Part shown: one piece after another, positions 7,291 through 61,417 of the stretch
Layout of the letters: the number at the start of each line of letters is the position of its first letter
How positions within the stretch are numbered: the stretch's first letter is position 1
Assembly (NCBI GenBank): GCA_000002435.2
Contig: CM018793.1
DNA length: 64,000 nt
From: Giardia intestinalis
Taxonomy: Eukaryota
Strand: one strand, 5' to 3'
Position numbers and translations under genes: made by a program
Notes under the pieces: generated by a model
Database searches by the model: none
The model's input: only the letters and a program-made list of their open reading frames with translations
What the model was told of the DNA's origin: nothing

Positions 7291-7370
7291 CTATGACTGG
7301 GCGCGCTAATGGAGGTGGTCAGCAGTATAATTTTATTTAAATCCAATCTGAAGATTTTAAATTTGGAATT

Positions 7371-7892: not shown

Positions 7893-7912
7893 ATTGATCT
7901 TCAAACGAATAA

Positions 7913-8485: not shown

Positions 8486-8494
8486 CCTATTCGT

Positions 8495-13066: not shown

Positions 13067-13143
13067 TTCTGTTTTTAAATTTTCTGCGTGGAATAGGAGC
13101 CATCTTCCGAAGCTCACCCACTAGTTGTCAACAAAACAATTTA

Positions 13144-13875: not shown

Positions 13876-13909
13876 TAATTTTTCGGATACGTGGTCCCTA
13901 AAACTTCAG

Positions 13910-37627: not shown

Positions 37628-37787
37628 TATTTATGTGTTTTTGACAGAGGCTCCGTCCTAACAAATCCCTGCCAGCTATGGTGAAATGATACCCGCGCAG
37701 CGGCCGCCCATGGGACTACAACCCCAAGGACTACAACGCTGGCAGGCAACAGGGGCCCGCACGCAAAACGCAGAGTTCACTAGCGGC

Positions 37788-40700
37788 CTACTGGAGGTCC
37801 AGGGCCGAGAGGTTGTCGTCGAGGACGACGATGCCGGCGCGGATGTCGTCCACAAGCTTCTTGTAGTACTCGACGGCCTTCCGGAGGTTGCCCGTCTCGC
37901 TGATGGCCTTGCCGCACTCGTCTGTCTTCTGCGCAAGGTCCTCGTTGGCCTTGTCGAGCGACTCCTGCAGCGAGGCGATCTCTGCCTCGAGCGCCATGGT
38001 GCGCTCGTCGTTTGCGGAGTGGAGGTTGGCGTCGCGGGCCTCCTCCAGCTCCCTGTTCAGGGCCTCGATCTGGGCGCTGACCTCCGCGTTCTTGCCCTCC
38101 TGGTCGTCGAGGAGGCCCTGGAGTTCCGTGATGGTGTTCTCGCGGTCGTCGAGCTCCTCCTGGAGCTTCCTGAGCTCCTCCTGCAGGCTCTCGACGACGG
38201 CCGGGTCGATGTCGTTCGCCGTGTTCTTGAGCACCTCGACCTCCTCCTGGAGGTCCGCGATCTGCTTCCTGCTCTCGTCCAGGGAGCACTGGAGGGTGGT
38301 GATCTTGTCGTTGTTGGCGCTGTCCAGCTTGATCATCTCGTCCTTGAGATCGCTGCACTGCTGCTTGAGGCCGTCGATCTCGTCCTGGAGCTCGTCGATG
38401 AGGGACCGCTTGGCCTCGAGCTCGTCCTTCAGCGCTGCGTTCTCGTCCTGGACCTCCCGGAGGGCCGCAGCATCCCCGACCTCCTCGCCGGACTCCGGAT
38501 AGACGGTGGTCGCGGTGGGCTGGGCCTCCAGCTGTTCGCGCAGCTCGGCGATCTCGGCGTCCTTGTCCTTGAGCCCGTCGTTGAGGACCGCGATCTCGTC
38601 ATCGAGCTCTGCGATCCTCTCCTTGAGGTCGTCGTACTCCTCGGTGTCGCGGAGCCTCTGCTTGAGCTCGTCGATGGTGGCGTCCCGCTCCGCCACAAGC
38701 TCCTTGGCTCCGCTGAGGTCCTTCTCGAGCTGCTCGACGAGCTTCTGGAGGTCGCCGTCTGCTGCCCTGGAGTCGCTGAGAGCGTGGAGCTTGTCCTGGA
38801 GGGCCTCGGCGCTCTCCCTGAGCTCGCGCACAGTGGCCTCGCTGGCCTCGAGCTTGTTTGCGAGCTCGGGGTCCGCAGTCGCAAGCTCGGCCCGGAGCCC
38901 CTCCGTCTCCATTTCCTTGGCCTCGAGCGCGGCGCGCAGCTCTGCAAGCTCCTTGCGCGCGTCCTGGAGCTGGTCCTCGAGCATCCGGACGCGCTCGGTG
39001 TCCTCGGGCACCTGGGCGGCCTCGAGCTGGACCCGGAGTCCGCCCAGCTCCTCGCGGAGGCGCGCGGCCTCGGCGTCGCTGTCGACGAGGTTCTTGTGGA
39101 CGGCGTCGATCTCGGCGAGCTTGGCGTTGAGCTGTCCGCGGAGCTCTGCAACCTCGTTCTCGAGGGAGGCAACCCGAGCCTTCGCAAGCTCCGCGCCGTC
39201 GTCATCGGTGACGGCTCTGAGGCCTGTCGTCGCGCCCGCGAGCTCGGCGTCCTTGCTGGCGAGCTGGGCGAGGAGGCTGTCGACCATCTCCTTGCTCTCG
39301 CCGAGCTTGGCCTTGTAGCCCTCGACCTCGGCGAGGAGCTCGCTAAGCCGCTCGGTGTTCTCGGCGCTGGCGCGGGCAATGGCAAGCTCCTTCTCGAGTT
39401 GCTCGATGGTCTCGTCCTTGCCTTTCGCCGCGTCGATCAGCTCGTCGACGCGGCTGCGAAGGTCGGCAACCTCCTGGCGCAGGGCCGCGACCTCGCCCTG
39501 GTCCTGCGGGGCGCCGAGGTCCTTGCGCAGGCTCTCCACCAGATCTGTCAGATCCCGGACCTGCTTCATGAGCCGCTCCTTGTCGCCCTCCAGGGAGTCG
39601 CTCCTCAGCCTGCCGTTGCGTAGGTCCTCCTTGAGCGCGTCCATCTCCGCCATGATCCGCGCGTGCTCGCCCTTGTAGTGGTCGTTCTCGCCGGTGAGGG
39701 CGTTGACGAGGGCCTGCAGCTCGTCGACCTTCTGGACCAGGCCGTCGTCGAAGTCGAGGATGCTCGAGACCTTGGCCTGCTCCTCGGGGTCGACGTCGCT
39801 GATCTCCGTCTGGGCGTCGACGTACTCCGCACCGGACTGGTCGGACGGCGCCACGCTGAGCGGCTTCTCGCGGAGCTCGCAGAGGGCGTCGTTGAGCTGC
39901 CTCACCTCGTCCTCGAGGCGGCGGAGGCTGTGCTCCTTGTCGGCGACCTCCTTGCCCTTGTCTGCAGCGAGCTGCTCGAGCTCGGCGAGCCGCGCGGTCT
40001 TCTCTTCAAGTCCCCGAATTGCGTCGTCGCGCGCGGCAACGGTGCCCCGGAGGTCTGCGATCTCATCCTCGAGGATCTTGATGCGCGCGTCGTCTTGGGG
40101 CACGGTGCTGTCAAGCTGGGCCTTGAGGTCCGCGATGAGGCTCTCCTTCGCGTCCAGGGCGCCGTTGAGCCTGTTGAGCTCGTCCTTCTGCTCGCGGTTC
40201 TGGCCGTGCATGACCTCGAGCTCCTCGTTGAGGACCTGGACCTCCTCCCTAAGCGCGTCGAGCTCCTCCTTGAGCCTGTCGAGGTCCTCGGAGGATGCGC
40301 CGGGCTCATCGGTGTAGACCGTCGAACCCACTGGCTTCTGCTCGAGCTCCCTCCGCATGTCCTCCATCTCGGCCACCGCGCAGTCGTACCTGTCCTTGAG
40401 CGAGAGGAGCTGCTCCTGCGCGTCCTCCAGCTGCTCCTGGAGCTCGACAAGCCTCTCCACGTCGCTTGCGTCTCCGCTCGCCCGGGCGTTGGCGAGCGCC
40501 TCCTTGAGGTCAGAGACCTCCTTGTTGAGGTGGGCGACCTGGCCGCGGAGTCCGCTGGCCTCGTCTGCGCCGCTCTTCCTGAGGGCCTCAAGCGCGTCAT
40601 TGAGGGCCTGGAGCTCGTCTTTGAGTCGGCCGTTCTCCTCCTCCAGCGCGGTGAGCTGTGCCGGATCGGTCTCGACTGGCTGAGCGGGCGCGCCGTCGAC

Positions 40701-42671
40701 GAGCTCCTTGAGCTCTGCGATCTGGTTATCGCGCGCCTCGATCTCATCGGTCAGCGCCCTGATCTTCTCCTCGAGGGCGCGGATGGCCGTCTCGTCTGCG
40801 GGGGCGTCGCGCGACCTACCGCTGAGCTCCTTGACCTGCTGCTGGAGCTCCTCGATGCGCGCAAGGTACTCTGCAGCGTCTGCTCCCCGCGTGGCGTCTG
40901 CCTCCAGGGCGTCCACCCTTTCCTGGAGAGCCGCGCTGTTCTTCATCTCCTCCTGGATGCGGTCGCGGAGGAGCTCGATCTCGTCGTCGCGCTCGTCGAT
41001 GTCCTGCTTCGCGTTGGCGAGCTCGAACTGGAGGTCTGCGATCTGCTCGTTGAGCTCCTTGACCCTCTCGTCGTCGCCGCCCTGCGCGTCGGCGAGGAGC
41101 CTCTCCAGCCCTGCGATCTGCGCCTCGAGCTGGGCTACGCGTTTATCGCCCTCGGCAGACGACCTCTGGGCGCTCTCTGCGCGCATGACGAGGTCCTGGA
41201 GGCGGGCGATCTCCGAGTTCTTGGCGGCGATGATGGCGTCGAAGTCCGCCGCCTCGCCTCCCCTGGCCAGGGTCTCCTCGAGGCGGCTCTGGAGGGCCTC
41301 GAGCTCCCCGTCCTTGGCGAGGAGGGCCTGGCGGAGGCTCTCGACCTCCTCCTCGAGAATCTGCGTGGCGTACGCCTCGTCCTGGCTGGCGGCTGCCTGT
41401 TCCAGCTCGGCAATGCGTGCGTCGCGCTCATCGAGCATGGACCGGAGGCCTGCGAGTTCGTCCTCGAAGGCCCTGGTCTTCTCGACGATGGGCCGGAGCC
41501 CCGAGAGGTCGGACTCGCGCGCCTCCAGCTCCTCCCGGAGGGCGCTGATCTTGTTTTCGTAGTCTGCAAGAAGGGCCGCGTCTCCCGTGGGCGACGGGAC
41601 GGCGGTCAGGCGCTCGTTGAGGGCGCGGATGTCCCTCTCCTTCTCCGCGAGCTCGGACTGGAGCGCCCTGATCTTGTCCTTGAGGCCGTCGACGTCCTCG
41701 CCAGACCCGCCGGCGCTGAGCATTCCCTCCATGTCGGAGAGACGCTCCTTGAGGTCGCTGATGATGGCGTCCTTGTCGGCCGTCTCGGACTGGAGCCTGC
41801 TGATCTCGATGCGCAGCGTGGTGATGTTCTCCTCCATGTTCTTGACCTGGCCGTGCAGGGAAACGTTCTGGCCGATGACGATCGACGACTCGTCGTGCAG
41901 CGAGGCCAGCTTCAGCTCGAGCTGCATGATCTTGGACTCGAGCTCGTGCTCGAGCTGCGTCTTGGTCTGCGTGAGGGAGTCAGCCTGTCCGCCGGGGAAG
42001 CGGTGCGCGTCGATCAGAGAGAATGACAGGGAGAGGTCGAGGGCGGGGTTTCCGACCTGGGACGAGGAGAAGTTCATGAGCGAGGGGCGGGTGAACTCCG
42101 GAATCAGGTTCGCCTCATAGGACGCGAGGCACTGGACGATGTCGGTGTGCCCGTTCTCGGCCGCGAGCACGAACGCCGTCTTGTGGTCGTACGAGACGAT
42201 CTCCTTCTCGCGGACCACGAGGAGCTTCACCACGTCCGTGTGGCCGGCCGCCGCCGCGTACATCAGGGCGGTGCGCCCGCGCGCGTCTGTCTTGGCCTTG
42301 AGGTAGGGGAGCAGGTTGCTGACCGCCGCGGTCGACCCGTGCTCGGCGGCGAGCATGAGAGGCGTCATCTGGAAGTCGCCGTAGGTGGTGTTGACCTCAT
42401 AGGCGACGAGGCGCTTGCAGACGTCGCCCTTGTTGGCCTCGGCGGCGATCATGATGGCGGTCTTCCCCTCGCCGTTGACCATGCCGTTCTCGAAGAAGCC
42501 GAGGATCTTGACAAGCTCCACGTTCCCTTCGCGCGCGGCGATCATCAGGCCCGTCTCGCCGTCGCCGTTGACGGACTTGGCGTACTCTGCTGCGTGGTTG
42601 CGGATCAGCTCGACCTGGCCGGCCTGGATGGCCTCAAACCATTCCTCCACAGAAGACACCACTGCAGGCAT
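37788..42671 (-). CDS. Ankyrin-repeat plus giant coiled-coil protein; GASP-180-like axoneme-associated protein family (inference)
   Basis: N-terminal ~200 aa contain 5-6 ankyrin repeats, followed by ~1400 aa of continuous heptad coiled coil. 1627 aa is about 180 kDa. The gene is markedly GC3-rich (~65% GC versus ~48% in neighbours). ATG at 42671. Confidence 0.7.
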   Translation of the reverse strand: MPAVVSSVEEWFEAIQAGQVELIRNHAAEYAKSVNGDGETGLMIAAREGNVELVKILGFFENGMVNGEGKTAIMIAAEANKGDVCKRLVAYEVNTTYGDFQMTPLMLAAEHGSTAAVSNLLPYLKAKTDARGRTALMYAAAAGHTDVVKLLVVREKEIVSYDHKTAFVLAAENGHTDIVQCLASYEANLIPEFTRPSLMNFSSSQVGNPALDLSLSFSLIDAHRFPGGQADSLTQTKTQLEHELESKIMQLELKLASLHDESSIVIGQNVSLHGQVKNMEENITTLRIEISRLQSETADKDAIISDLKERLSDMEGMLSAGGSGEDVDGLKDKIRALQSELAEKERDIRALNERLTAVPSPTGDAALLADYENKISALREELEARESDLSGLRPIVEKTRAFEDELAGLRSMLDERDARIAELEQAAASQDEAYATQILEEEVESLRQALLAKDGELEALQSRLEETLARGGEAADFDAIIAAKNSEIARLQDLVMRAESAQRSSAEGDKRVAQLEAQIAGLERLLADAQGGDDERVKELNEQIADLQFELANAKQDIDERDDEIELLRDRIQEEMKNSAALQERVDALEADATRGADAAEYLARIEELQQQVKELSGRSRDAPADETAIRALEEKIRALTDEIEARDNQIAELKELVDGAPAQPVETDPAQLTALEEENGRLKDELQALNDALEALRKSGADEASGLRGQVAHLNKEVSDLKEALANARASGDASDVERLVELQEQLEDAQEQLLSLKDRYDCAVAEMEDMRRELEQKPVGSTVYTDEPGASSEDLDRLKEELDALREEVQVLNEELEVMHGQNREQKDELNRLNGALDAKESLIADLKAQLDSTVPQDDARIKILEDEIADLRGTVAARDDAIRGLEEKTARLAELEQLAADKGKEVADKEHSLRRLEDEVRQLNDALCELREKPLSVAPSDQSGAEYVDAQTEISDVDPEEQAKVSSILDFDDGLVQKVDELQALVNALTGENDHYKGEHARIMAEMDALKEDLRNGRLRSDSLEGDKERLMKQVRDLTDLVESLRKDLGAPQDQGEVAALRQEVADLRSRVDELIDAAKGKDETIEQLEKELAIARASAENTERLSELLAEVEGYKAKLGESKEMVDSLLAQLASKDAELAGATTGLRAVTDDDGAELAKARVASLENEVAELRGQLNAKLAEIDAVHKNLVDSDAEAARLREELGGLRVQLEAAQVPEDTERVRMLEDQLQDARKELAELRAALEAKEMETEGLRAELATADPELANKLEASEATVRELRESAEALQDKLHALSDSRAADGDLQKLVEQLEKDLSGAKELVAERDATIDELKQRLRDTEEYDDLKERIAELDDEIAVLNDGLKDKDAEIAELREQLEAQPTATTVYPESGEEVGDAAALREVQDENAALKDELEAKRSLIDELQDEIDGLKQQCSDLKDEMIKLDSANNDKITTLQCSLDESRKQIADLQEEVEVLKNTANDIDPAVVESLQEELRKLQEELDDRENTITELQGLLDDQEGKNAEVSAQIEALNRELEEARDANLHSANDERTMALEAEIASLQESLDKANEDLAQKTDECGKAISETGNLRKAVEYYKKLVDDIRAGIVVLDDNLSALDLQ

Positions 42672-42775
42672 GTTTTATTATCCAGATAGTGTAAAGGTCC
42701 ATTCGATTTTAAATTCACTTCCCGCCCCTCAGATGCGGCCGGCGTGCGCTGTGTGTGCGGCCGGACCCGCCTGCA

Positions 42776-44218
42776 TCACCAGGGGGCCGCGAACCTTGCG
42801 ACTTCTCCAATGGTGCTCGCGAGGACGTCTGCGGTGAGCCCGTCGAATTTCGCTGAAAGAAGGCCGGCTACTACGAGCTGCTTTTCGTCCTCATCGAGGT
42901 GTCTGTACCGCTCCAGGGTGCCCAGGTCTATGAGGGCGTCTGGATCCCGGCGAGCTCGGCCCTTCTGCTGCATGGCGCTTTCTGCTAGGCAAAGCATTGC
43001 CGAGCACTGCTCGGTGACCTTTATGATGACTCCTATTTGGCCGCCTATCGTCGCGTATAGTATGGGAGGATACGGCTCAATGAGCTGCCGACCAGACGCG
43101 TGGCTTCTGCTCGTCGCGACGGCGCTGCTCTCCCTTCGATGGCCTGGCGCGGGGCCGAAGCAGACGACCTGCTCCCCGACGTAATGGGATGCGACAGTCT
43201 TCAGCCCCTGCGAGCTGTGCAGTTTGATGATGTGTATGTACCCTGCGCGATCCCCAACCAGTATCGGTCCGTCGACGCCTATCTGATAGATGCACGCCGG
43301 GATCATCCGCTGCAAGAGCTGTGACTGGATTACCAGGCGGGGCTGCTCCAGAGTAGTGTGCGCAGTCCTTAGCCCGTCGCTCATGAGCGTCACGCCCTTG
43401 AGCATATCCAGTATAGTCACTTGGGAGTACGCCGTGCCTAGCTTCAGAAGCAGCGCAGGCCCGGTGCAGCCGTACACCTCCAGCAGTTGGTACTCCGTGC
43501 TCATAAACGGCTTTCCTATGGATTGACCAAAGTGAAGCCCGTGCGTGTCCCTCGTAATGTCCTCTTGGGCCAGGTCTTTGTCTGTTACCAAGGCAAGGAT
43601 GATTATGGCGGTTCGCAGCGAGACAGCTACGCGGTGGTTTGTGTAGGGTGCGATGTCGCACACGGTGTTGTTGCTGAACAGAAAGTTCGCAACAAGCTCT
43701 ACCGCATACTCCTCCTTCGGAGAGTACGAGATCTTCATGCTATAGACTGCTACGAATCCGTCCTCGGCGTCGGCCTGCTCGGCAGACGGAAGGTTATAAC
43801 TCACAACAATAAACGGAAGCCTGTCGCTGCGCAGCGGCATGTACTGTAATCCGCTGATGACGGCGTTGTCGGGAAGCTGCACCGTGAAGACCGGGCGCAA
43901 GTTGTACGTGAAAAATCCCAATGCAGCGTACGAGTTCTGGTGCATCAGGGCTTCTGGAATAGTGCTCGTGGGGGCGGGGTATCCGGGATTCCCCGTGGCT
44001 AGTACGTCGAAGGTCCTGGTTACGTTGCTGTAGGAGTAATGCTCTACCGGGCCCTCTTGGAGAGCGGAGGTGTCCGACTCGTCTGCTCCTTTTCTGACCT
44101 CTCCTGCCATCAGATTGACAACTGATGCTGTCTTGTTGATTCCCCCGCAAGTAGTCGACTGGTTGGTTCCTCCGCCCGAGGATAGAGGGCGTAGAGAGTG
44201 GAACCCCACGCACAGCAT
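42776..44218 (-). CDS. CPSF_A-domain protein (DDB1/CPSF160/SF3B3 family C-terminal region only)
   Basis: C-terminal motifs HYVGEQVVCF, ILYATIGGQIGVI and IDLGTLERYRHLDEDEKQLVVAGL match the DDB1/CPSF160 C-terminal domain. The protein is only ~480-495 aa. First ATG at 44218; the track start at 44263 is TTG. Confidence 0.55.
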   Translation of the reverse strand: MLCVGFHSLRPLSSGGGTNQSTTCGGINKTASVVNLMAGEVRKGADESDTSALQEGPVEHYSYSNVTRTFDVLATGNPGYPAPTSTIPEALMHQNSYAALGFFTYNLRPVFTVQLPDNAVISGLQYMPLRSDRLPFIVVSYNLPSAEQADAEDGFVAVYSMKISYSPKEEYAVELVANFLFSNNTVCDIAPYTNHRVAVSLRTAIIILALVTDKDLAQEDITRDTHGLHFGQSIGKPFMSTEYQLLEVYGCTGPALLLKLGTAYSQVTILDMLKGVTLMSDGLRTAHTTLEQPRLVIQSQLLQRMIPACIYQIGVDGPILVGDRAGYIHIIKLHSSQGLKTVASHYVGEQVVCFGPAPGHRRESSAVATSRSHASGRQLIEPYPPILYATIGGQIGVIIKVTEQCSAMLCLAESAMQQKGRARRDPDALIDLGTLERYRHLDEDEKQLVVAGLLSAKFDGLTADVLASTIGEVARFAAPW

Positions 44219-44851
44219 TCCGTGGTAGACAATATGGGCGAGCCTTCTTGGGAGTCCTGGCAACGGAGCACTTGAGCAAATGATGGTCTACGGGGATCTA
44301 TGCGCTAAAAGGAGAAATAGTTGGTCTGATCTTCCTATCGCTGCGTACAAGGAAAGCCCGCACCGTGATCTCCTCCACCAGGGGTCATCCTGTCTCATCT
44401 CCGGTGCTGTCCTTCGCCGGGCCTTCGGTGGGACACCCATGCATATCGGTCATTGCACAATATACAGTATGAATCTCTAACAATCTCTGACACATTGCAC
44501 AGCCCTACCAGCCGCCAGCTCGGCCATCCTACGGCAGAGACTCCTTAATTCGTTCTGAATTGAGAAGAGGGCCCAGGGCTACGATTAGTGTTATGCGAGC
44601 ACGAGATGCAGACCTCCTTCATCAATGCCTCTCCCTCCTGCCAGACAATGCCCTTTGTAGATACAAAATGGACGTAGATACCTGTCCAAAGATGGGGGCG
44701 TTATTCTTTACCTAAACACCACTTGTTGCTATGCCTTCGCCAGACGCACCAGCCCTAAATAGAGTCTCAGTTCTTGCTACTCAGAGCTAATGATGATTGT
44801 CCTCTGGTGCCCTCTAAAGCATTCTAGGACTCCAACATCCGCGCCTGTGAC

Positions 44852-47494
44852 CTAGATTGTTGCTGTGTTACTGACTAAATTTGTTGACAGAATCTGCGCC
44901 AGGTCGGTTCCTCTCGGGATTATCTCTATGTACTCCCTGGGGTCTGCCGAGGGGATAATCCAGTTTGTCGCGGGAATGCTAGTGAACCACTGTGAAACGT
45001 TTTCCCCCTGAAGAATTACGGATCTCCTAGGAGCTCGCTTCTGAGTCACTTCGATTCTGTTCCTGTGCAGCAGTATGCAGCTCGCAGTGTTGATGGAGTG
45101 GTGGCCTGCATGCTCCTCGACAATGGCAAGGGAGGACACGTTCGAGGCCTGGTAGTCGCATTTGCTCACGAGGATGCAATGGTGCTCGGGCAGCTTCGTT
45201 GCGCTCGTGAGGTGAGTGGACTTTGTTAGAATGGGTGACGTCCGAAGAGACAGGGTACCATACATGGGCTTTCCGGTGGCCTCCCCTGATTGGGACTGCA
45301 CCACAGACGAGGGCACTGTGTCGAAGACTAGAGATCCCCCAATGATGCTGTCCTCCTCCTGCTCTGCCGGGCTAGGGGCTTCCGGAGCAGGGGCTGCTCT
45401 CTGCTCCGACACCCGGTACCTGTAGTTGATGTTCGTGTCTATGGCCGTGTTGGATATGACAAGCCCGCAGACGGAGCTCATCTCGTAGCGGGACAAGTAG
45501 AGGGCTGATGTGTTCCTGAGCCTGTGCATCATGGCACCAATGCCGTTTTCGCTAAACACAGTGTAGACAAACCGCGCATCGTATGCGTCGTTCGCCACAA
45601 TCGCCCCCACGCAGCAGTTATTGATGAAGCACGTGTTGGCGTGGACGGAGCCATCGGAAGTGTACACCCCCACAAAGGAGTTGAACAGGTGAGTATCACT
45701 CATTGCTAGATGGGAGCCCTCCTTGACGACAATAAGGGACCCCTTCACAATCATCTCTCTATCCCTGAGAAACCTGTCTGGCGTGAGCATGAAGGGAAGG
45801 TTCTTGGCTGGCTCCTCGGCGGCCTCTAGGCTGCACAACTCCCTGGGATGTCTGCTGCCCTGTCCGCCAAAGTCCTGTGTGCGACTGATAGCGCTGTTCA
45901 TCAAGCTTCTTTGCGTGTCGAGTTCTAAGATGGGGGATAACGCCACGGTTCGAAAGCTCGTGGTCATCGCGAGGGGGTTGATTTGTGTGCAGAAGACAGA
46001 GGAGCCATGAATGTACAGCTGGGACGCCGAGGATACAAGAACGGGGCACCTTGGCCCAACATACAGGCTGCTTTCGCTCTCGGGAAGCTTGTGCGACAGA
46101 CTGAATGGAAGGCTCGCCAAACTATTCGAGTTAATCCTGGACTTAATCAGTAGCGTACTCGTAGACCTGTTGGTCACGACGAGACACGGGTTAATGGTAG
46201 CAAGATCACGCTCCAAGTGCGCCAGCGAATCCGCAGTTAGAGTCACCCCCACTCTTTCTAGAGCCTGCGAGATGGCTGCCAGCGAGAGGTTGTTGGGAGA
46301 CGAAGACCTCAGCAGCTTCTGGAGCCGGGGGACAGACGACGCCATGGAGCGGTCCCTTGACGCTATGGGACACCCGGGTAGCCCCGTGTACCGGTCTGTG
46401 AAGGACTCTGAAGAGTAGGCGGGCGTGGACTCGATCGTGCAGTTGATGATGTTCGCGTTGCTTCCGATGACGTACACTCTCCCTATTATGTGAAGGTTGA
46501 AGATCGTGCTATTGTCTGTGAGTATGACGGTGCCGTACACAACAGAGCGACGCTTCCTGTTAGCGGTAAGGGACTGGGTGACGCGGGACTCAAACCTGCA
46601 CTGCGCCTTCTGCACTGCGACGTCTGTCCCGCCCCTGCTGGAAGCCCCGCCCAGGGTTGTTCTGGGGGGAAGTACCAATGCGGCAGGCAAGACGTACAGG
46701 CCAGTCTTGAGAATGTGGATTTTGAATAGGTCTGCGTGGCCTACGTATATGTTCTTTGCTAGGGCGACGGAGTCTAGAATGCCCTTGATGTTGTGGTGAG
46801 ACTTGAACAGCGGTAAAGACGCCGAGAGCGTATCCATGACATTCTGGCGGACGAGCGAGATAAGAGAGCCAGTGGGAGCATGGGCAGCTGGTGCGGAGCG
46901 ATCAGTGGAGGAGCTGGCAAGCTGGTGCATGTGTCTGGCGGCGAGATCCTCCATGGACGCGAGAAGCTCAGCCGCAGTCGACATGAAGACCAGGTTTCCA
47001 GCCCTCTGGGCAATGAAGTCGACCGTTGCCTGATTGCTTGCTATGCATCCCTGGTAGACGGAGGCTAGGCGGGCCTTCATGTTCCGCACCCACAGCTCGG
47101 ACGCCAGGAAGTTCTCCTCGGTGATCTTTTCGAGCTTGCTGATCTGGACTTCGAGCGCCTGTTCTATCGTCGTGGCCACTCTGCCAAACCTGTCAAGCTC
47201 GTTGCGATCGATCTTCTCCTCGATGCTCGTCTTCTTGCTCTCTGCAAGGTACAGGCTAGCCTCCGCCTTGGTCCTGGCCTGCTCCATTGAGACGTACGCC
47301 TTTAAGATGAGGCTCTTGTGGGTCGCGCTATGCTTGTCGTCTGCGAAGTGCTCTGTCAGAATGCACGACTGACATTTTAATTCCTGGCGTTTGTGTGCGT
47401 GGGTTTCCAATTCAAGTTTACACAGCGGACACAGGATCTTATGGGCTCCTGGGCGAACAAGGTTGGCGCATGCGACACAGCATAGAGACGCCAT
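44852..47494 (-). CDS. B-box-type zinc finger / coiled-coil protein with C-terminal parallel beta-helix-like repeats, hypothetical
   Basis: N-terminus CCVAC...CPLC...HAH...CQSC...H, then a ~150-aa coiled coil, then repeated NxxxI/V-containing ~25-aa units. ATG at 47494 preceded by caaaaaacaa. Confidence 0.5.
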   Translation of the reverse strand: MASLCCVACANLVRPGAHKILCPLCKLELETHAHKRQELKCQSCILTEHFADDKHSATHKSLILKAYVSMEQARTKAEASLYLAESKKTSIEEKIDRNELDRFGRVATTIEQALEVQISKLEKITEENFLASELWVRNMKARLASVYQGCIASNQATVDFIAQRAGNLVFMSTAAELLASMEDLAARHMHQLASSSTDRSAPAAHAPTGSLISLVRQNVMDTLSASLPLFKSHHNIKGILDSVALAKNIYVGHADLFKIHILKTGLYVLPAALVLPPRTTLGGASSRGGTDVAVQKAQCRFESRVTQSLTANRKRRSVVYGTVILTDNSTIFNLHIIGRVYVIGSNANIINCTIESTPAYSSESFTDRYTGLPGCPIASRDRSMASSVPRLQKLLRSSSPNNLSLAAISQALERVGVTLTADSLAHLERDLATINPCLVVTNRSTSTLLIKSRINSNSLASLPFSLSHKLPESESSLYVGPRCPVLVSSASQLYIHGSSVFCTQINPLAMTTSFRTVALSPILELDTQRSLMNSAISRTQDFGGQGSRHPRELCSLEAAEEPAKNLPFMLTPDRFLRDREMIVKGSLIVVKEGSHLAMSDTHLFNSFVGVYTSDGSVHANTCFINNCCVGAIVANDAYDARFVYTVFSENGIGAMMHRLRNTSALYLSRYEMSSVCGLVISNTAIDTNINYRYRVSEQRAAPAPEAPSPAEQEEDSIIGGSLVFDTVPSSVVQSQSGEATGKPMYGTLSLRTSPILTKSTHLTSATKLPEHHCILVSKCDYQASNVSSLAIVEEHAGHHSINTASCILLHRNRIEVTQKRAPRRSVILQGENVSQWFTSIPATNWIIPSADPREYIEIIPRGTDLAQILSTNLVSNTATI

Positions 47495-48285: not shown

Positions 48286-48890
48286 CTGTCGCCGCAGCAG
48301 ATTTTCCCCGACGATTTTACTTTAAAATGGTACGGACTGCCTCTCTGTTGGCCGCTGGCCTCCCAGTTGCAGACTGAGAGCCAACACCGCGACCGGTATG
48401 CCTGACCTACTACCTAGTCAGTAGATACCCCTGTTCGGCAAGCAGAAGCTGTGGGGTTAGCCCTGGACAGGTCAGACTCGTTCTGTCCGTAAAGGCCCTC
48501 CGTGGCCGGCTCGTCACTTGTGGCGCCATGACTCAGACTCTGCACACGCTTATCGCACAGGGCATCCAACCCGTGCCTTCTGGGCGAGTAGTTAATGTCA
48601 AAGGCGATTATCGTGTCTTAGTGTGCCAGCGCATGACCGAGACTACCTTACAAAGTACAGTAGCGTACTGCCTAACGCTAGAAGCATGGGGCGACTTGTC
48701 CGAGAGCAGCCCATCCGTTATAGGGCCGCCCCTGTAATGGGTTCGCACAGGCCTCGGTCACCGACCACCCGAGATGTGATCTGCTCCTTGATGATTGTGT
48801 CATGTGCGAGCCTCTTTTGTATAATCCGAACACTACTTCCACTGATAACACGATCTGAGATTAAAAATTAATACTTTTAGACAGCTGTTG

Positions 48891-50927
48891 ATGCATGCGT
48901 TGGTGGTGCTCGTCGCTCTGGCCACCGCGCCGTCGCGTGGAGGGAAGATGAGCTGCCCCAAAAACCACTACCTGACCGGGAGCATGTGCGTTGAGTGCGC
49001 CACGGCGATAAAGTGGTGTCTGGAGTGCACCGGGGCAGGCGCGTGCACGAGGTGCGCTTCCGGGGCGTATCTCGAGGGAGGGTACTGCAAGCCGTGCGAC
49101 CCTACCTGTGAGCGCTGCACAGGCCCGGGGAAGTGCACGGCGTGCAGCGAGGCCCACTGCAGGGCACAGGACGGGACGTGCAAGAAGCCCAAGGACTTAT
49201 ATACAGGATGTAGCAAGTGCGTCCATGACACAGGAAAGTGCATGACCTGCGCAGAGGGGTACTTCCACTCGGGCGCGGGATCAACCCCCTGCACAAAGTG
49301 TGCCGATAACTGTCTATCCTGCAAGAGCCCCACTGAGTGCACGAGGGCTGCCTCAGGGTACTATGTTAACCCCTCGACGAAGAGTCCAGCTGCCTGTACC
49401 AGTGCTAACTGTGACACTTGCGCAGATGGCGGAGCATGCACTGTCTGCAAGCCAGGTTATAGGCTTTCTACGTCATCAACAACGACATCATCGGCAACAT
49501 GTGTAAGTTGTACTGGCAATTGCAGCACGTGCGATTCCAACAAATGCACCTTCTGCATGCCCGGCTATGCCCTCACTTCTGACAGTACCTGCCAGGCGTG
49601 TCAGCAAGGCTGCGCTATCTGCGCCGATGATGAGCACCAGTTTCCTGGCAAATGTCTCTCCACTGGCTGCGCACAAGGCTACTATTACCATTCGTACGCA
49701 AAGGTGTGTGCCAAGTGTCCAACCAATTGTGCCGACTGCTACTACGACGAGGTGCACAGCATTCCTGTTTGTACCCGGTGTACGGACTCGTCCCAACTCA
49801 CGGTAGGACCAAAGATATATGGCATTTGGTGCTCTGATCTACCGACCAAAAGTTGTAAGAGTAACGAGTTTTTAGAAAACGGCTTTTGCGTCCCCTGCTA
49901 CGGGGCCATTATGAACTGTATAGGATGCAGCGACCGCTTCCGCTGCACTGAATGCTTGCCTGGCTACTACTTGTACGACAACCTCTGTGTCCGGTGCGAC
50001 GACAACTGCCTTGCTTGTGAGAACACTGCGACAAACTGCACCAATTGCGATGATGGCTTTGTCCTGCAGAATGGCACATGCGTTAAAGTGGGCTTGGTGA
50101 TAGAGAACTGTCTCCACGCGGATAATACCACAGATCCAACCAAAGGCTGCAGCACGTGTCGGGGCGGCTTTTACGTAGCTGACGGTGCGTGCAAGAAGTG
50201 TGTGGATAACTGTCAGTTATGCAAGGGACCGGAGGTTTCGAACTGCATACTAGGATTCAATGGCTATCGGTATGATAGCTACAAGAATACGTTGGAAAAG
50301 TGTGAGGATCCCAACTGTGAGCTGTGCGCAGAAACAGCAAAGTATTGCGGCACTTGCAAACTAGGATTTTACATATCACCTGACGATCAGAAGTGTGCGA
50401 AAGGACAAGTAGAGAATTGCAAGGTCTATACATATGACGGCTCTGCATGCAGCGAGTGCCTAGCCGGCTATGGCATTTCAGTTGATGGAGATCGGTGCTC
50501 CCCGTGCTTGGAAGGCTGCAAGGGAGAGTGCACAGACACTACTTGTGAGTCTGGCGTGTGTGTGCAGGGATACTATTTCGCTGAAGGGGATACGTGTCTA
50601 ACGTGTCCGAGCGAATGTGCGTCCTGTATGGCAAACAGCAAGAAGCTGGTCTCTTGCGATCGGTGCACGTCTGGCCAGGTTTTCGCCATTAGCTCAGTCA
50701 TGGGTCTCTACTGCGGTAAGCTGGACTCTAACTTCTCCAGCAGGGGCGCAGGACTCATCTCTACGATTGTTATCTTGGGCCTCATCATCGTCGGTTTCAT
50801 CGTGGCTACTCCGTTCCTCGTCAAGCTTGCGAAGAAGCGGGGGGTCCGAGTTAGCAAATTACGCAGCATAAATTCCGGGTCAGAGAGCCACAACGAGTTC
50901 CTTCTAGAGGAGCCGGATCTTCTGTGA
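48891..50927 (+). CDS. High cysteine membrane protein (HCMP), type I membrane protein
   Basis: Signal peptide, about 12% Cys arranged as repeated CxxC/CxC units, one C-terminal TM helix (LISTIVILGLIIVGFIVATPFLV), and a short cytoplasmic tail that does not end in CRGKA. ATG at 48891; the track start is TTG. Confidence 0.8.
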   Translation: MHALVVLVALATAPSRGGKMSCPKNHYLTGSMCVECATAIKWCLECTGAGACTRCASGAYLEGGYCKPCDPTCERCTGPGKCTACSEAHCRAQDGTCKKPKDLYTGCSKCVHDTGKCMTCAEGYFHSGAGSTPCTKCADNCLSCKSPTECTRAASGYYVNPSTKSPAACTSANCDTCADGGACTVCKPGYRLSTSSTTTSSATCVSCTGNCSTCDSNKCTFCMPGYALTSDSTCQACQQGCAICADDEHQFPGKCLSTGCAQGYYYHSYAKVCAKCPTNCADCYYDEVHSIPVCTRCTDSSQLTVGPKIYGIWCSDLPTKSCKSNEFLENGFCVPCYGAIMNCIGCSDRFRCTECLPGYYLYDNLCVRCDDNCLACENTATNCTNCDDGFVLQNGTCVKVGLVIENCLHADNTTDPTKGCSTCRGGFYVADGACKKCVDNCQLCKGPEVSNCILGFNGYRYDSYKNTLEKCEDPNCELCAETAKYCGTCKLGFYISPDDQKCAKGQVENCKVYTYDGSACSECLAGYGISVDGDRCSPCLEGCKGECTDTTCESGVCVQGYYFAEGDTCLTCPSECASCMANSKKLVSCDRCTSGQVFAISSVMGLYCGKLDSNFSSRGAGLISTIVILGLIIVGFIVATPFLVKLAKKRGVRVSKLRSINSGSESHNEFLLEEPDLL

Positions 50928-57137: not shown

Positions 57138-59720
57138 CAGGGGCCGGTTCCCAGGGATGCAAGGACGGCAGATCGCTTGCTGTCTAAGCAGTAATTAGAT
57201 CCATGTTTTGTCATGACGGCAAGGTTGGCACCGGATCAAGTTCTTTGGATCTTTAACACAATATCTGACAAATGCATTGTTCTATTGGCTGAACATAGGA
57301 TTGCTGACAAAATTTTGTTTCCGCATTGGCATAACCCGAACAGAACTTCAATGTTGTTGGTAGTATTCTATCTTGTGTTGAGTGCTCTCGCGGCAGCATG
57401 CAAGCAAGCACAAAATTGTGTAGAGGATAAGTGCGAAATGATCGGAGACACCGAAATTTGCACTCAGTGCACAGCAGGAAAAGTCCCAATTGATGGAGTA
57501 TGTACAGCAGTTGGTAGTGCCGCTGGTAAATGTACAAAGGCTGAAGGACAAGCAGTAGATGACACTGATAAAACATGTGGAAAATGCGTAGACGCATACT
57601 TCATGTACAAAGGCGGATGTTATCTGGCCGGTGCAGCTGGACCGGGTACTGGTACTAAAATGTGCAAGCAGGCTGCTGGTGGCAAGTGTACGCAAGCTGC
57701 TGATGCGAAGAACTACTTCATTCCACCAGCAAATACAGACGATACTCATGATTCTGTCGTTTGGTGCGGTGATGAAATAGGCGTAACACTTAGTAGTACT
57801 CAGTATAAGGGTGTTGCTAAGTGCCTAGTATGTGATGCTCCCGGTGGCGCTGGTGCTGCAACGTGCACAACCTGTGAAGACGGGTACTTTGGTGCTACTT
57901 GTGAAAAATGCCATGAAAGTTGTAGGACATGTGAAGCTGCAGAAGAGAATAAGTGCAAGTCGTGTACAGATGGCTACTTCCTTGGAGCAACCAATGGAGC
58001 CGCAGGTAAGTGCCTTAAATGTAACTCTAAAACAGAGGAAGGCTGGCACGGAGTTGACAACTGTGCTAAGTGCACGTCATCTAATACGCAAAACACTCCT
58101 GCGACATGCACTGAATGCGTTGCAAATTTCTATCTAAAACCAGCTGCGGATGCGACTCCTTCTAGTTGCGTCACAGAAACGGGGTGCGGTGACGGATACT
58201 TCCCAACTATTGTTGATGAGGTCAAGAAATGTATCGCTTGCAGTGCAGCTACAAATGGTGGCATAGATGACTGCAAAAAGTGTTCTCTCAAAACAACGTC
58301 TGCGAAGGCAGGAGTAGAGATCGTATGCACTGAATGTAATACTAAATGGCTCAGTCCTCTAAGAGACGCATGTTTGGATAGCTGTCCTCCTGGAACACAT
58401 GCTGATTCTGGCAATATTTGTCCTTTATGTCATAGTACATGTGCAGAATGTGATGGTAATGCAGGAGCCAACTTTTGTACAGTTTGTTATCCAGGGTTTG
58501 TATTAAAGCGCGGTGAAACTGGCAACATGGGCATGTGCGTTCCCGAGTGCACTGGAGAGTACGCAGAGAACTGCGAAGCTGACCAATGCACGGCCGTTAT
58601 AGGTAGCTCCAAGTATTGCAGCAGGTGTAAGGTTGGATTTGCCCCAGTGGATGGCGTCTGTGTATCGACGGCTTCAAGAGCAGTAACTGGATGCACAGCA
58701 GGAAACGATGGGACATGTACGGCCTGCACAGGTACATATTTCTTACAATCTGGTGGGTGCTATCAGTCAACAACGTATCCTGGTAATACCCTCTGCTCTA
58801 TCGCTGCTAGTGGAAAGTGCACAACATGCGCCAATGGGCAAACAGCAGATAGCAATTTGGGTTCTTGCCCAGCATGTCCAGCTGGCTGCTCAAAGTGCGC
58901 AACTAGTGGTAGTCCCAAAGCATGCTCAGAGTGTTTCCCTGGATACTATAAATCTGGGGATAGCTGCGCAAGATGCGATACTAATAACAGCCAAATTACC
59001 GGTGTCGCTAATTGCGTAAGCTGTGCTCCTCCATCTAATGGTCAAGGATCTGTCATCTGCTACATAACGCGACAAGAGACCGACGATGGCACTGGCGACA
59101 ACACAGGTGGAAGCACGAACAAGAGCGGCCTCTCCACGGGTGCCATCGCGGGGATCTCCGTGGCTGTGATTGTTGTTGTAGGTGGCCTCGTCGGCTTCCT
59201 CTGCTGGTGGTTTATCTGCCGTGGAAAGGCGTAGACTTAGGTAGTAAACACGTCACTGTATATGGCTTATTACGCTATTCTGCCGGGGCTATCTGAGGAT
59301 CGCCCAGAGATCGTGTGAGTGAGTCCGCTCCTTTCTGACTAGTCCGGAGACGAGGGTTGGTCATGAATAACATGACGGAGAGTCCTCTCCAGTGATATAT
59401 CCAGAGCCTGGTGCGCTCCTCTGCCATTTCGCGGGGGTGTACTCAATCCGAGTGTGTGCGTCACTCACCCTGGGATTCAGCTTACCTATCCATTTGCATC
59501 GTCCACCAGTGGCGCCTCTCGTTGGTCTTCCTTCGTGGTGGGTGAAGCTCCGGTCGCCGTCCTTTTTTAGATGCCCCGTCTGTCAGGGGCTGCCACCGGG
59601 CTCTCCGCTGGCTGGGCCCTCGGTGTCCGGGCAGCTGTGGCTCGAGTCAGCGCTCCCACAGTCCAGTCACCTGTGTCTCAGTGGGCCGGCTGGTGGGTGG
59701 GGCGGGGGTATGGGGCGGTG
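57138..59720. repeat. Left arm of a >=2583-bp perfect inverted repeat (carries VSP copy 1)
   Basis: Reverse complement of 61418..64000. The arm may extend further left because the right arm is cut by the window end. Confidence 0.85.
57351..59234 (+). CDS. vsp: Variant-specific surface protein (VSP), copy 1
   Basis: Signal peptide MLLVVFYLVLSALAA, many CxxC motifs, a GGCY-type motif, a C-terminal TM and the invariant CRGKA terminus. The upstream in-frame ATG at 57213 adds 46 non-signal residues and is probably 5' leader. Confidence 0.85.
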   Translation: MLLVVFYLVLSALAAACKQAQNCVEDKCEMIGDTEICTQCTAGKVPIDGVCTAVGSAAGKCTKAEGQAVDDTDKTCGKCVDAYFMYKGGCYLAGAAGPGTGTKMCKQAAGGKCTQAADAKNYFIPPANTDDTHDSVVWCGDEIGVTLSSTQYKGVAKCLVCDAPGGAGAATCTTCEDGYFGATCEKCHESCRTCEAAEENKCKSCTDGYFLGATNGAAGKCLKCNSKTEEGWHGVDNCAKCTSSNTQNTPATCTECVANFYLKPAADATPSSCVTETGCGDGYFPTIVDEVKKCIACSAATNGGIDDCKKCSLKTTSAKAGVEIVCTECNTKWLSPLRDACLDSCPPGTHADSGNICPLCHSTCAECDGNAGANFCTVCYPGFVLKRGETGNMGMCVPECTGEYAENCEADQCTAVIGSSKYCSRCKVGFAPVDGVCVSTASRAVTGCTAGNDGTCTACTGTYFLQSGGCYQSTTYPGNTLCSIAASGKCTTCANGQTADSNLGSCPACPAGCSKCATSGSPKACSECFPGYYKSGDSCARCDTNNSQITGVANCVSCAPPSNGQGSVICYITRQETDDGTGDNTGGSTNKSGLSTGAIAGISVAVIVVVGGLVGFLCWWFICRGKA

Positions 59721-61417
59721 AGGCTGGAGGGGACTGGTGGGACCAGGTGGTGGGTGTTCGTATGCGCCCCTGACCTTTTAGTGGACTGGGGTGATCCCCG
59801 CTCTGTTTGCCAAGGTGGTTGTGTCTGATCTTCAACCATCGTTGCACTCCCGAGACAGAGGCACCGACGATCGTGTCGTGTCCCCCTGAGTGAGCGCCTC
59901 CCTTGGCCCCTGCATGCCTCGGGCAGTACTGCTCTGTCTGGCTGGTGCATGAGGGCTGAGGCAGACCATCGCAGCCTCTCCTGTTGCTCGCTGATGCTCT
60001 GTGACGGGTCTGCTGGGCCCCTGGCATGCCCTGTCCGGTGCCTCGACGATAGTTCACCTCGGGCCAGCAGGGGTGTGGATGACCTTGTGAATGGGATGGG
60101 GTTCTCTCATGCCTCTAGTGTGATGACTCAAAAGACTAACACGGTGGGGCATCGGTGACTGCACTGTCCCCGTGGTCAGCTGTGCTGCTCCTGGTGGGTC
60201 CTTGTTGTGGAGCGCTGTGTATCATCCATAGGCAGAGGTGAGCCTCCTTGGTCTCAGGATGCTCTACCATCAGAGAGGAGCACGCTGGGGGTCACCCAAC
60301 ATCACCTGCTGTGCCCTCGGGAGTTCCCGGTGTGGTCTACTAACCTTAACACCTCTCGTGGCTCTGATGACCCCTCGGGGAGAGCCGGGGTGTCCTATGC
60401 CAGGGAGGCGTGCACCTTCCTGCATGAGCTGGGCCATCCACTGCACTGCCCCCAAGGAGGTCTGCTATGAGAGGCAGTGGGATGATTGACAGCCCCTCAG
60501 AGTGGGTGGAGGGCGCTCGTGGTCGTCTCTGTGACCGGGCATCACTCTGATAGTCGGCTCTGTGCCTGCGTGGTGCTCAGAGGTCACCTGTCTGCCTCAT
60601 TGCCTGCTGGACAGCCGGCCTCTTGTGTCATCCGAAGGCCTCCTCACTCCTCTGGCTGCTGCCCCCTCGGGTCATCGATGGAGACCAGCGGAGTCTTCGG
60701 TGGGTCTGGTGCCTGTCTGGGTGTCATGGGGGCTGGCAGCTATCAGGGCTCTGCCACTGCTCACCTGCCTGGAGTGTGCCTCCCTTGGGTCTGCTGTGCT
60801 GTAGTGTTTGAGTCCTCTGGTTTCCTATCAGGCCCTGGTTGTGAGGGTGACCCCACCTGGCCCTCTGATGTCCCTGTGGATGAGCATAGCAGCTGTCTGG
60901 CTGGGGATCTCTGGTGCCCGTGGCTGTTGCTGCCTCTCGGGTGCTCGGGTGGTTGCCTGGCACTCTCGTATGGGACACAGTCAGCGTGTCCCGAGCAGAC
61001 CCTAGTCCTCTCTGGGTCATGCACAGTCTGTCCGTGTGTGGATGGTCCTCCTGCACTCAGGTCCATCTGTGCATACTATCACTCAGCCTCGAGAGCAGGC
61101 CAGTGCCAGTTACTAGGGCTGCTGTCAGAGGGAGTCGTCTGCCACTACCATCGCTCGAGCAGCCCTGCAGATCAGGCTGGTTGCTGTGCACCCTCATGGC
61201 AGGGCTGCCTGACTCCCTTGGTCATCCTCTCTGTCCCGGTGTGCACGGCTCCTGAGGGTTGCCTGGGTGGAGGCACTCACAGACCACGAGCACACAGAGG
61301 GATGAGTCACAGGTAGACAGCCCCCAGTCACCACAGCTGCGATCACCCCAGTTCACCGGACCCAGGGGCACATACGAGCACCACCAACCTCAGCCCCCAC
61401 CAGAGCCCCTCCAGTCC
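59721..61417. other. 1.7-kb spacer between the IR arms: a degenerate continuation of the palindrome with a strand-compositional switch
   Basis: The left half is A-poor (G/T/C-rich) on the plus strand and the right half is T-poor (C/A-rich). The spacer edges are still ~80% identical to each other in reverse complement. Spurious long ORFs arise here because stop codons are rare. Confidence 0.6.

Follow-up and report, generated by a model that had tools for sequence, protein, structure and literature searches.

Members of the DDB1/CPSF160/SF3B3 (CPSF_A) superfamily share a three-propeller architecture (BPA, BPB and the MMS1_N region, with a third propeller, BPC, and a C-terminal domain, CTD), and known structures of the DDB1 family show close packing of the third propeller on both the first propeller and the C-terminal domain. 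DDB1, the CUL4 adaptor (PDB 3EI1, 4A0K), is the best sequence and fold match of the Giardia protein considered here, marginally ahead of CPSF160, although sequence identity is ~14-24% and the full-length Giardia protein is ~490 residues longer. CPSF160/Cft1 (PDB 6BLY, 6DNH, 8E3I) is of similar length (1443 aa vs 1434-1626 aa in Giardia), and SF3B3 (also SF3b130 or Rse1) of the U2 snRNP belongs to the same superfamily and is the weakest of the three in profile searches. A second described system is formed by truncated duplicates that lie at the edges of segmental duplications and are homogenised by interlocus gene conversion. The locus studied here resembles these in its abrupt loss of homology inside a gene, its lost 5′ end, its intact co-duplicated neighbour and the clustering of its paralogues by strain; unlike typical truncated duplicates, it carries no internal disabling mutation, even though it is older than the split between assemblages A and E. 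Here, we argue that this open reading frame (ORF), at 42776-44263 on the minus strand of the window (the 64-kb stretch of Giardia intestinalis WB DNA that was analysed), is probably a collateral 3′ fragment of a full-length parent gene, generated by a 6.6-kb duplication and kept intact by gene conversion, rather than a piece of minimised machinery. The part of this reading that concerns segmental duplication and gene conversion is, taken alone, very nearly certain.

The ORF is real, its longest stop-to-stop reading comprising 495 codons from a TTG, and the 480-aa product read from its first ATG is identical to GL50803_0060256/XP_037902231.1 of G. intestinalis WB. A literature search with the locus tags found no mention of them. 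The features of the ORF are as follows:

42776 to 44263, minus strand: longest ORF (TTG to stop, 495 codons), a copy of parent codons 1132-1626, corresponding to BPC and the C-terminal helical domain
42776 to 44218, minus strand: annotated CDS, starting with the first ATG (ORF Met16), 480 aa, by exact-sequence look-up
42788 to 43012, minus strand: C-terminal helical domain, ORF residues 418-492, four helices (hhalign and AlphaFold model)
43025 to 43930, minus strand: beta-strand-rich propeller core, ORF residues 112-413 (Pfam, hhalign, AlphaFold, Foldseek)
43934 to 44200, minus strand: insertion, ORF residues 22-110, poorly conserved and probably disordered (alignment gaps; pLDDT <50 for residues 22-120)

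The insertion is mostly missing in G. muris and bears the majority of the paralogue-specific substitutions.

Profile and model evidence assigns the predicted product to the DDB1/CPSF160/SF3B3 superfamily, of which it comprises the third propeller and C-terminal domain only. The earlier note had recognised C-terminal motifs of this family in the sequence and had proposed a Pfam search and a structure prediction as checks, and both bear it out. Pfam CPSF_A is matched above its gathering cut-off (hmmscan, E 3.2e-7, 30.5 bits vs 27, residues 280-433), and hhalign against Carpediemonas DDB1 (KAG9396543.1, residues 785-1132) gives a probability of 97.9% and an E-value of 5.9e-13. In that alignment the motifs pair column for column (HYVGEQVVCF with FHLGEQVNVF, YATIGGQIGVI with YATVNGGVGTI, and LIDL..LERY with FIDGDVVEQF). 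The AlphaFold model of the ORF has moderate confidence (pLDDT 59, with 70-85 in the core; an earlier run with 7 sequences gave an unusable 43) and adopts the propeller and helical CTD fold of the BPC+CTD part of DDB1. Its best PDB matches are all DDB1 or CPSF160 (Foldseek E 4e-14 to 8e-13, TM-score (query) 0.55; E 4e-14 for the BPC+CTD part of DDB1 and 7.5e-13 for CPSF160), a fold match that is biased by the presence of Carpediemonas DDB1 in the alignment behind the model. The three-propeller architecture is absent from the locus, as the earlier note had stated: parent residues 1-1110 find no match in the 64-kb window by tblastn. It is present in the parent gene elsewhere in the genome.

That parent is GL50803_0061566, a full-length 1626-aa paralogue from the same WB strain on another chromosome-sized contig (chromosome 1). 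The window ORF shares 98% identity over 495 aa with residues 1132-1626 of this protein. Assemblages E and B have full-length orthologues, and so does G. muris (GLP15_1879, GL50581_4630 and GMRT_11516); the gene was found in every Giardia lineage sampled, and the full-length orthologues in the other lineages are 1626, 1627, 1624, 1434 and 1428 aa long. These relatives escaped a word-indexed homologue search with the 495-aa ORF, in which two truncated proteins were the only hits, and were recovered through cluster listing and a search with the N-terminal part of the parent. Like the window copy, GL50803_0061566 and its orthologues have an ankyrin/coiled-coil gene downstream. In contrast to it, the parent has ~1130 extra N-terminal residues that resemble the N-terminal propeller region of CPSF160 in a profile search, whereas in the window copy the parental start codon is missing and a TAG lies a short distance upstream. 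The full-length model on chromosome 1 is unlikely to be an assembly artefact, given the independent P15, GS, BAH15c1 and G. muris assemblies. Taken by itself, the window locus, which encodes just the third propeller and C-terminal domain, in an organism known for reduced machineries, would suggest a drastically minimised scaffold that has replaced the canonical three-propeller protein, as first proposed. That proposal is refuted by the full-length gene in the same genome and its orthologues in the other lineages, and by a full-length profile with matches to both the N-terminus of CPSF160 and the C-terminus of DDB1; we give it practically no weight.

How did the fragment arise? The ORF lies at one end of a duplicated block:

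37748 to 44308, minus strand: whole duplicated block, ~6.6 kb (positions 5388-11982 of the parent locus L003 match window 44308 to 37748 at 91.5%)
37788 to 42671, minus strand: co-duplicated ankyrin-repeat and coiled-coil gene, 1627 aa (Ank_2, E 2e-48)
44264 to 44326, minus strand: residual 5′ extension, 21 codons alignable to parent residues 1111-1131 (DQLFLLLAHRSP*TIICSSAP vs DKQMLSLAHRSPSTIICSSAP)
44288 to 44290, minus strand: in-frame TAG (Ser in the parent, TCG in P15), seen in both assemblage-A sequences examined (window, L001)
44327 to 44851, no strand: unique intergenic DNA, not parent-derived, conserved with the P15 contig at the locus, with no RNA family match and no intron motif

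From the parent gene, the block takes in the last 1.5 kb (3′ end); beyond this come the intergenic promoter region and the complete ankyrin/coiled-coil gene, which is probably an intact gene carried by the duplication, and the block ends ~40 bp beyond the stop codon of that gene. On the other side, homology to the parent continues for 21 codons beyond the ORF, across the in-frame TAG, and then ends, which places the 5′ breakpoint at about 44308-44326 (the L003 match ends at window 44308). The N-terminal side of the ORF is bounded by a stop codon and by the duplication breakpoint. The locus is highly identical to one part of a longer gene, its homology breaks off inside that gene, and a neighbour has been duplicated along with it. 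The fallback wording of the earlier note, 'or a remnant', was essentially correct: the ORF lies where the edge of the 6.6-kb segmental duplication cuts the gene. Its description of the upstream 588 bp (44264-44851) holds in part: the stretch contains no ORF of at least 100 aa, and the gene beyond it (44852-47494, 880 aa) lacks both a Pfam match and similarity to the full-length parent protein, but the initial ~45-63 bp are still parent-derived and not unrelated sequence.

A repeat of 98% identity is hard to assemble, and the junction could in principle be a mis-join. The same junction nevertheless occurs in three further independent assemblies, and the DHA2 product is likewise 495 aa long, which leaves such an artefact with a negligible probability. 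The support includes a 454-era P15 contig with 1.5 kb of unique flank (L002, collinear with window 45849 to 42299 across the junction) and a Logan short-read contig with ~80 bp across the junction; in assemblage B the junction is present in rearranged form, in the opposite orientation. A simple inversion was considered as the origin of the assemblage B layout and ruled out, as the far flank differs.

Giardia trans-splices a few split genes, e.g. those of HSP90 and the dynein heavy chains. The ORF might accordingly be the 3′ exon of a split gene, joined in cis or in trans to 5′ exons elsewhere, a case that the earlier note had named as fatal to its own proposal. Five trans-spliced introns are annotated in Giardia (PMC7000408), and the TAG at 44288-44290 is formally readable as a YAG acceptor. 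Against this, the Giardia 3′ intron motif CTRACMCACAG is absent in and near 42700-44900 even with one mismatch allowed (matches in the window number 5, vs a chance expectation of 4.5), parent-derived coding homology extends upstream of the TAG, P15 has TCG at this position, and the annotators' own motif search yielded no new introns (PMC7000408). Moreover, the parent is a single unbroken ORF through the point equivalent to the window junction. We regard a split gene as very improbable. An Rfam scan of 42600-45000 returned only one snoRNA match, below threshold (18.5 vs 42 bits).

Comparison between strains shows how the two copies have evolved. The truncated copy, with the same junction, is also found in assemblage E (P15), which has its own full-length gene as well, and hence the duplication is older than the A/E split. 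Truncated and full-length copies are nonetheless 98.1% identical within WB and 99.4% within P15 (the two P15 copies are 99.3% identical at the nucleotide level), vs 86-87% in all comparisons between A and E. The paralogues thus group by strain and not by locus, despite a junction common to A and E, as expected under concerted evolution, and this within-strain identity of 98-99% against ~86% between strains indicates that gene conversion has homogenised the fragment and the full-length gene repeatedly. Duplications are reported to account for 6.9% of the WB genome (Xu et al, 2020; PMC7000408). The differences that remain are mostly synonymous, the synonymous and non-synonymous counts being 10 and 4 for the P15 paralogues, and 18 and 6 for two assemblage-A isolates at the window locus, an excess that purifying selection on a genuine product would explain just as well. 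In assemblage B just the last 73 codons are kept, beside the copied coiled-coil gene, and a 480-aa product is therefore not conserved across G. intestinalis.

These observations give the following course of events. A ~6.6-kb segmental duplication copied the last 495 codons of the parent, together with the downstream ankyrin/coiled-coil gene, to a second chromosome (chromosome 5). With its breakpoint ~15-20 codons ahead of the third propeller, the resulting fragment happens to cover one whole module (BPC and CTD). We infer that the fragment is a by-product: gene conversion from the selected parent, and not selection on a stand-alone product, would keep the ORF open and its substitutions mostly synonymous. 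Any product would start at Met16 (44218) or Met52 (44110), and would lack the first one or two propeller strands together with the two N-terminal propellers on which the third one normally packs.

Could the fragment instead be a functional gene in its own right? Such a gene would be expressed from Met16 or Met52 as a ~444-480-aa protein of propeller and helical domain and would be retained by selection in A and E; its product could be a decoy or regulator that competes for the partners of the parent's third propeller and CTD. The ORF is intact in 7 of the 7 copies examined (the window, the DHA2 protein, P15 and four 444-aa variants from other assemblies, one of them confirmed at the window locus and the others called independently), with no internal stop, frameshift or other disabling mutation in the retained coding region and its sole stop upstream of the ORF. 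The excess of synonymous changes also points to a product, as does the complete structural module left by the breakpoint, which starts at the conserved PLPGLPRRL strand. The gene is protein-coding in the WB, DHA2 and P15 annotations, and the WB annotators, with RNA-seq as a guide, kept it outside their 306 pseudogenes (PMC7000408). However, gene conversion from a selected parent accounts for both the intact ORF and the low ratio of non-synonymous to synonymous changes, and only 73 codons survive in assemblage B. No ATG stands at the beginning of the copied part, assemblage A has the in-frame TAG just upstream, and no A/T-rich initiator is found. The stability of an isolated third propeller also appears doubtful by analogy with known structures.

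The A/T content ahead of the two possible start codons is low, with 43% A+T in the 60 nt before Met16 and 50% before Met52, at the lower end of the 42 to 70% that precede the other large genes of the window. This comparison discriminates weakly, however: in parts of this upstream interval, the 880-aa neighbour and one 463-aa ORF show equally low A/T. Giardia promoters are minimal, which further weakens the argument. On balance we consider a functional stand-alone gene improbable, if not negligibly so. Marginally less probable again is a variant that combines both views, in which the third-propeller and CTD module has been released as a separate expressed protein in A and E, for example to titrate scaffold partners, and is kept in step with the parent by gene conversion.

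The parent itself is a very divergent yet full-length 1626-aa protein of the DDB1/CPSF160/SF3B3 family. A full-length Giardia profile matches human DDB1 with E 5e-7 and human CPSF160, via its N-terminal region, with E 5e-6, matches that emerged only once a distant 1655-aa relative (P0034) had joined the profile. SF3B3 and Rse1 lie far behind, with E-values of 0.018 to 1, and are thus not the closest relatives; yeast Cft1 is not among the 60 profile matches listed. PDB searches gave no match with a six-sequence Giardia profile and one spurious match with the single full-length protein (a ketosteroid dehydrogenase, E 0.016), and a profile search of a 5.8-billion collection returned Giardia proteins only. 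Five proteins came back from an exhaustive search of 1.84 billion representatives, too few for a deep alignment; outside the Giardia lineage the hits were Carpediemonas DDB1 and one 1655-aa Logan protein. No Giardia cullin was found in a Pfam-based inventory (PMC7029713), and the CUL4 partnership that defines DDB1 may therefore not exist there. Candidates for the usual partners of CPSF160 have been listed, namely CPSF30 (GL50803_13225), WDR33 (GL50803_16900) and CPSF73 (GL50803_4498 and GL50803_8026) (PMC9014877).

An inventory of the 3′-end processing, splicing or ubiquitin machinery of Giardia drawn from the window locus alone would yield a false one-propeller scaffold. Prior inventories are inconsistent on this family: a P15 CPSF_A protein (GI 308162520) is listed as an SF3b130 candidate, "only in P15" (Korneta et al, 2012, Table 9; PMC3424538), while a different locus tag, GL50803_7570, has been named putative CPSF-160 (Bilodeau et al, 2022; PMC9014877). 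The locus is also a clean case of interlocus gene conversion, in which a partial duplicate older than the A/E split has been kept almost identical to the parent. SNP typing and read mapping in Giardia are affected, because reads from the two loci will cross-map. The sites that discriminate between the two WB copies are ORF codons 53, 57, 58, 63, 65, 220, 236, 448 and 480, and an example of a segment that separates them is ...MAGEVRKGADESD... vs ...MTGEVGEGADEPD...

The ORF that the earlier note had read as a half-size DDB1/CPSF160-family protein is a truncated gene duplicate of an ordinary kind, lying where a segmental duplication ends. The ORF and its neighbours are as follows.

42776-44263, minus strand: the ORF, 495 codons in its longest stop-to-stop reading, opening with TTG
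44852-47494: next gene upstream, 880 aa, no Pfam match
37788-42671, minus strand: co-duplicated ankyrin/coiled-coil gene, 1627 aa, Ank_2 E 2e-48

The ORF exists as described, and the 588 bp upstream of it (44264-44851) lack any ORF of at least 100 aa; its first ATG is codon 16 (44218) and its second is codon 52 (44110). The family assignment was also correct: in hmmscan residues 280-433 match Pfam CPSF_A (E 3.2e-7; 30.5 bits, over the 27-bit curated cut-off), and neither MMS1_N nor any other propeller family was reported. Read from the first ATG, the 480-aa product agrees at every residue with GL50803_0060256 / XP_037902231.1 of G. intestinalis WB, recorded on a 4,018,654-bp contig, and truncated relatives are annotated in assemblage A2 (DHA2_154668, 495 aa) and assemblage E (GLP15_2936, 480 aa, 86% identical). 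An Rfam scan of 42600-45000 gave nothing over threshold; a weak match to the C/D-box snoRNA family snoU82P inside the ORF (43442-43483, minus strand; 18.5 bits where the gathering score is 42 bits, E 0.098) is most likely due to chance.

A drastically minimised scaffold, as the earlier note had proposed, is contradicted by a full-length paralogue in the same genome. The 90%-identity cluster of the ORF protein also contains GL50803_0061566 / XP_037901556.1, a WB protein of 1626 aa recorded on another contig (1,485,438 bp), which over its residues 1132-1626 matches the full 495-codon ORF at 98% identity, the 15 codons ahead of the ORF's first ATG among them. The tblastn match to this parent continues for another 21 codons upstream of the ORF, to about 44326 (window DQLFLLLAHRSP*TIICSSAP, parent DKQMLSLAHRSPSTIICSSAP) and runs through the TAG at 44288-44290, so that the stop bounding the ORF is a Ser codon in the parent. 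Similarity dies out between 44308 and 44326, and parent residues 1-1110 have no tblastn match in the 64-kb window. Full-length orthologues are present in P15 (GLP15_1879, 1626 aa), GS (GL50581_4630, 1627 aa, whose cluster includes the assemblage-B protein KWX11207.1, 1632 aa), G. muris (GMRT_11516, 1434 aa) and two Logan assemblies (1624 aa and 1428 aa). Since full-length proteins occur across Giardia lineages, Giardia has a normal-sized family member and the window carries a piece of a second copy. A word-indexed homologue search with the 495-aa query missed two full-length relatives (P0014 and P0015) whose identity to that query is 77-87% along its full length and which were recovered only by an N-terminal query; a negative from such a search does not equal absence.

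That the ORF could instead be the 3' exon of a full-length homologue, or part of a split gene, is ruled out by the intron-motif scan, by Rfam, by the parent, which is a single uninterrupted ORF, and by the WB re-annotation, which reports no introns past the known 8 cis-spliced and 5 trans-spliced (Xu et al. 2020, PMC7000408). Even with one mismatch allowed, the Giardia 3' intron motif is absent from the vicinity of the ORF, and its count across the window is that of chance (5 found, 4.5 expected).

The copied part corresponds to the C-terminal module of the family. In hhalign, the full-length Giardia-lineage profile aligns parent residues 1241-1617 to residues 785-1132 of Carpediemonas DDB1 (probability 97.9%, E 5.9e-13), which itself matches human DDB1 at E 1e-117. 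The start of the ORF, (L)PGLPRRLAHI, aligns with IGELPRRIATH of Carpediemonas DDB1, a position that is probably the first strand of the third propeller. An AlphaFold model of the ORF (9 sequences, pLDDT 59, pTM 0.59) starts with two short strands, followed by an insertion that is disordered and little conserved (residues 22-110), roughly 22 strands (112-413) and four C-terminal helices (418-492). Foldseek against the PDB returned DDB1 chains (E 4e-14, query TM-score 0.55, about 405 columns) and CPSF160 (8E3I; E 7.5e-13), an order that carries no weight because the model's alignment contained a DDB1.

For the parent, CPSF160 or DDB1 is more likely than SF3B3: the full-length profile matches human DDB1 through its C-terminal region (E 5e-7), human CPSF160 through its N-terminal region (E 5e-6) and SF3B3/Rse1 only at E 0.018 to 1. 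An exhaustive search of 1.84 billion representatives added to the known Giardia proteins only a 1655-aa Logan protein and the Carpediemonas DDB1. In Giardia, a Pfam-based inventory turned up no cullin (PMC7029713), which argues against a working CUL4-DDB1 role. The literature on Giardia family members is inconsistent: a P15 CPSF_A protein is listed as an SF3b130 candidate "only in P15" (Korneta et al. 2012, PMC3424538), and the putative CPSF-160 is GL50803_7570 (Bilodeau et al. 2022, PMC9014877), a different gene from 60256 and 61566 under the locus-tag rule that inserts "00" into every id (Xu et al. 2020, PMC7000408). The locus is of modest interest as a warning for gene inventories.

At the P15 parent locus, a 1641-aa gene lies downstream of the full-length gene (2040-6920 of contig L003). 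Window 44308..37748 has a 91.5% match in L003 5388-11982, so the copied block spans about 6.6 kb. It takes in the final 1.5 kb of the three-propeller gene, the intergenic region and the ankyrin/coiled-coil gene in full, and ends about 40 bp beyond the stop codon of the latter. L002, the P15 contig carrying the truncated gene, is collinear with window 45849..42299 (85%), past the breakpoint and on into the unique DNA upstream and the 880-aa gene's 3' end; L001, a Logan contig of a second assemblage-A isolate, covers 44389..37745 at 98.6%. These matches across the breakpoint show that the junction is real and that assemblages A and E share it.

The 1627-aa protein of the co-duplicated gene has ankyrin repeats in its N-terminal part and an acidic coiled coil that is very long, and the region of the gene is 66-67% G+C versus 45-50% in adjoining DNA. 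Counterparts lie at L003 7016-11941 and at 10343-15295 of the assemblage-B contig L004 (JXTI01000010.1); assemblage E has two copies per genome, and the second-locus copy is present in assemblages A, B and E. In P15, one more ankyrin/coiled-coil gene, at least 1832 aa long, follows the parent locus.

Truncated and full-length copies are 98.1% identical within WB and 99.4% within P15, and comparisons of A with E give 86-87% throughout, whichever copies are paired. The DNA of the two P15 copies is 99.3% identical over 1997 bp, and all 14 differences fall in the CPSF_A-type part, the 468 bp downstream being identical. The common junction together with this clustering by strain indicates repeated gene conversion between both loci; the sole alternative, separate insertions at the identical base in two lineages, is far less likely. 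The fragment is of modest interest for this long-lived homogenisation with its parent gene.

Does the fragment work on its own? The reading frame is unbroken in all copies compared (the window, P15, the DHA2 protein and four variants of 444 aa in other assemblies), synonymous differences outnumber non-synonymous ones between the P15 paralogues (10 versus 4) and between the window and L001 (18 versus 6), and the WB annotators retained the fragment as protein-coding (PMC7000408). However, gene conversion from a parent under purifying selection yields the same patterns without selection on the fragment. In assemblage B, moreover, all that remains of the three-propeller gene ahead of the copied coiled-coil gene (1650 aa) is its last 73 codons, annotated or called as 65-91-aa ORFs in many assemblies, so the 480-aa product is not conserved across the species complex. 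The copied part also starts without an ATG, assemblage A carries the TAG shortly before the ORF at a site that reads TCG in P15, and the A+T content of the 60 nt before Met16 (43%) and Met52 (50%) is at the low end among the window's other large genes, a weak test because the 880-aa neighbour is similar. A stand-alone function thus seems unlikely, and the fragment is quite probably a by-product, in keeping with the remnant that the earlier note had also considered.

In assemblage B (L004 10001-15329 compared with window 37760-42990), the block adjoins the PNP_UDP_1 neighbour that it also has in the window, but in opposite orientation, with a different far flank, the short 5' end of 73 codons, and the 3' end that A and E have. 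One inversion cannot by itself explain this layout. The GenBank label 'Uridine kinase' is wrong on both the 75-aa assemblage-B remnant and the 1632-aa full-length protein.

Elsewhere, the window holds a perfect (100%) inverted repeat of 2595 nt (57138-59732 and 61406-64000, 1673 nt between arms), which touches the window end and may truly be longer. Its arms carry identical VSP genes, tail to tail (Pfam VSP E 3.7e-85), listed with a further VSP-like ORF.

57213-59234, plus strand: VSP gene, 673 aa, inverted-repeat arm
61904-63925, minus strand: VSP gene, 673 aa, inverted-repeat arm
48888-50927, plus strand: VSP-like ORF, 679 aa

The repeat fits the class of duplicated VSP pairs described in '-> <-' orientation (Xu et al. 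2020, PMC7000408). The 679-aa ORF matches the VSP family less strongly (E 2.7e-15), through the N-terminal part of the profile alone; it may encode a high-cysteine or VSP-like protein or be a pseudo-VSP.
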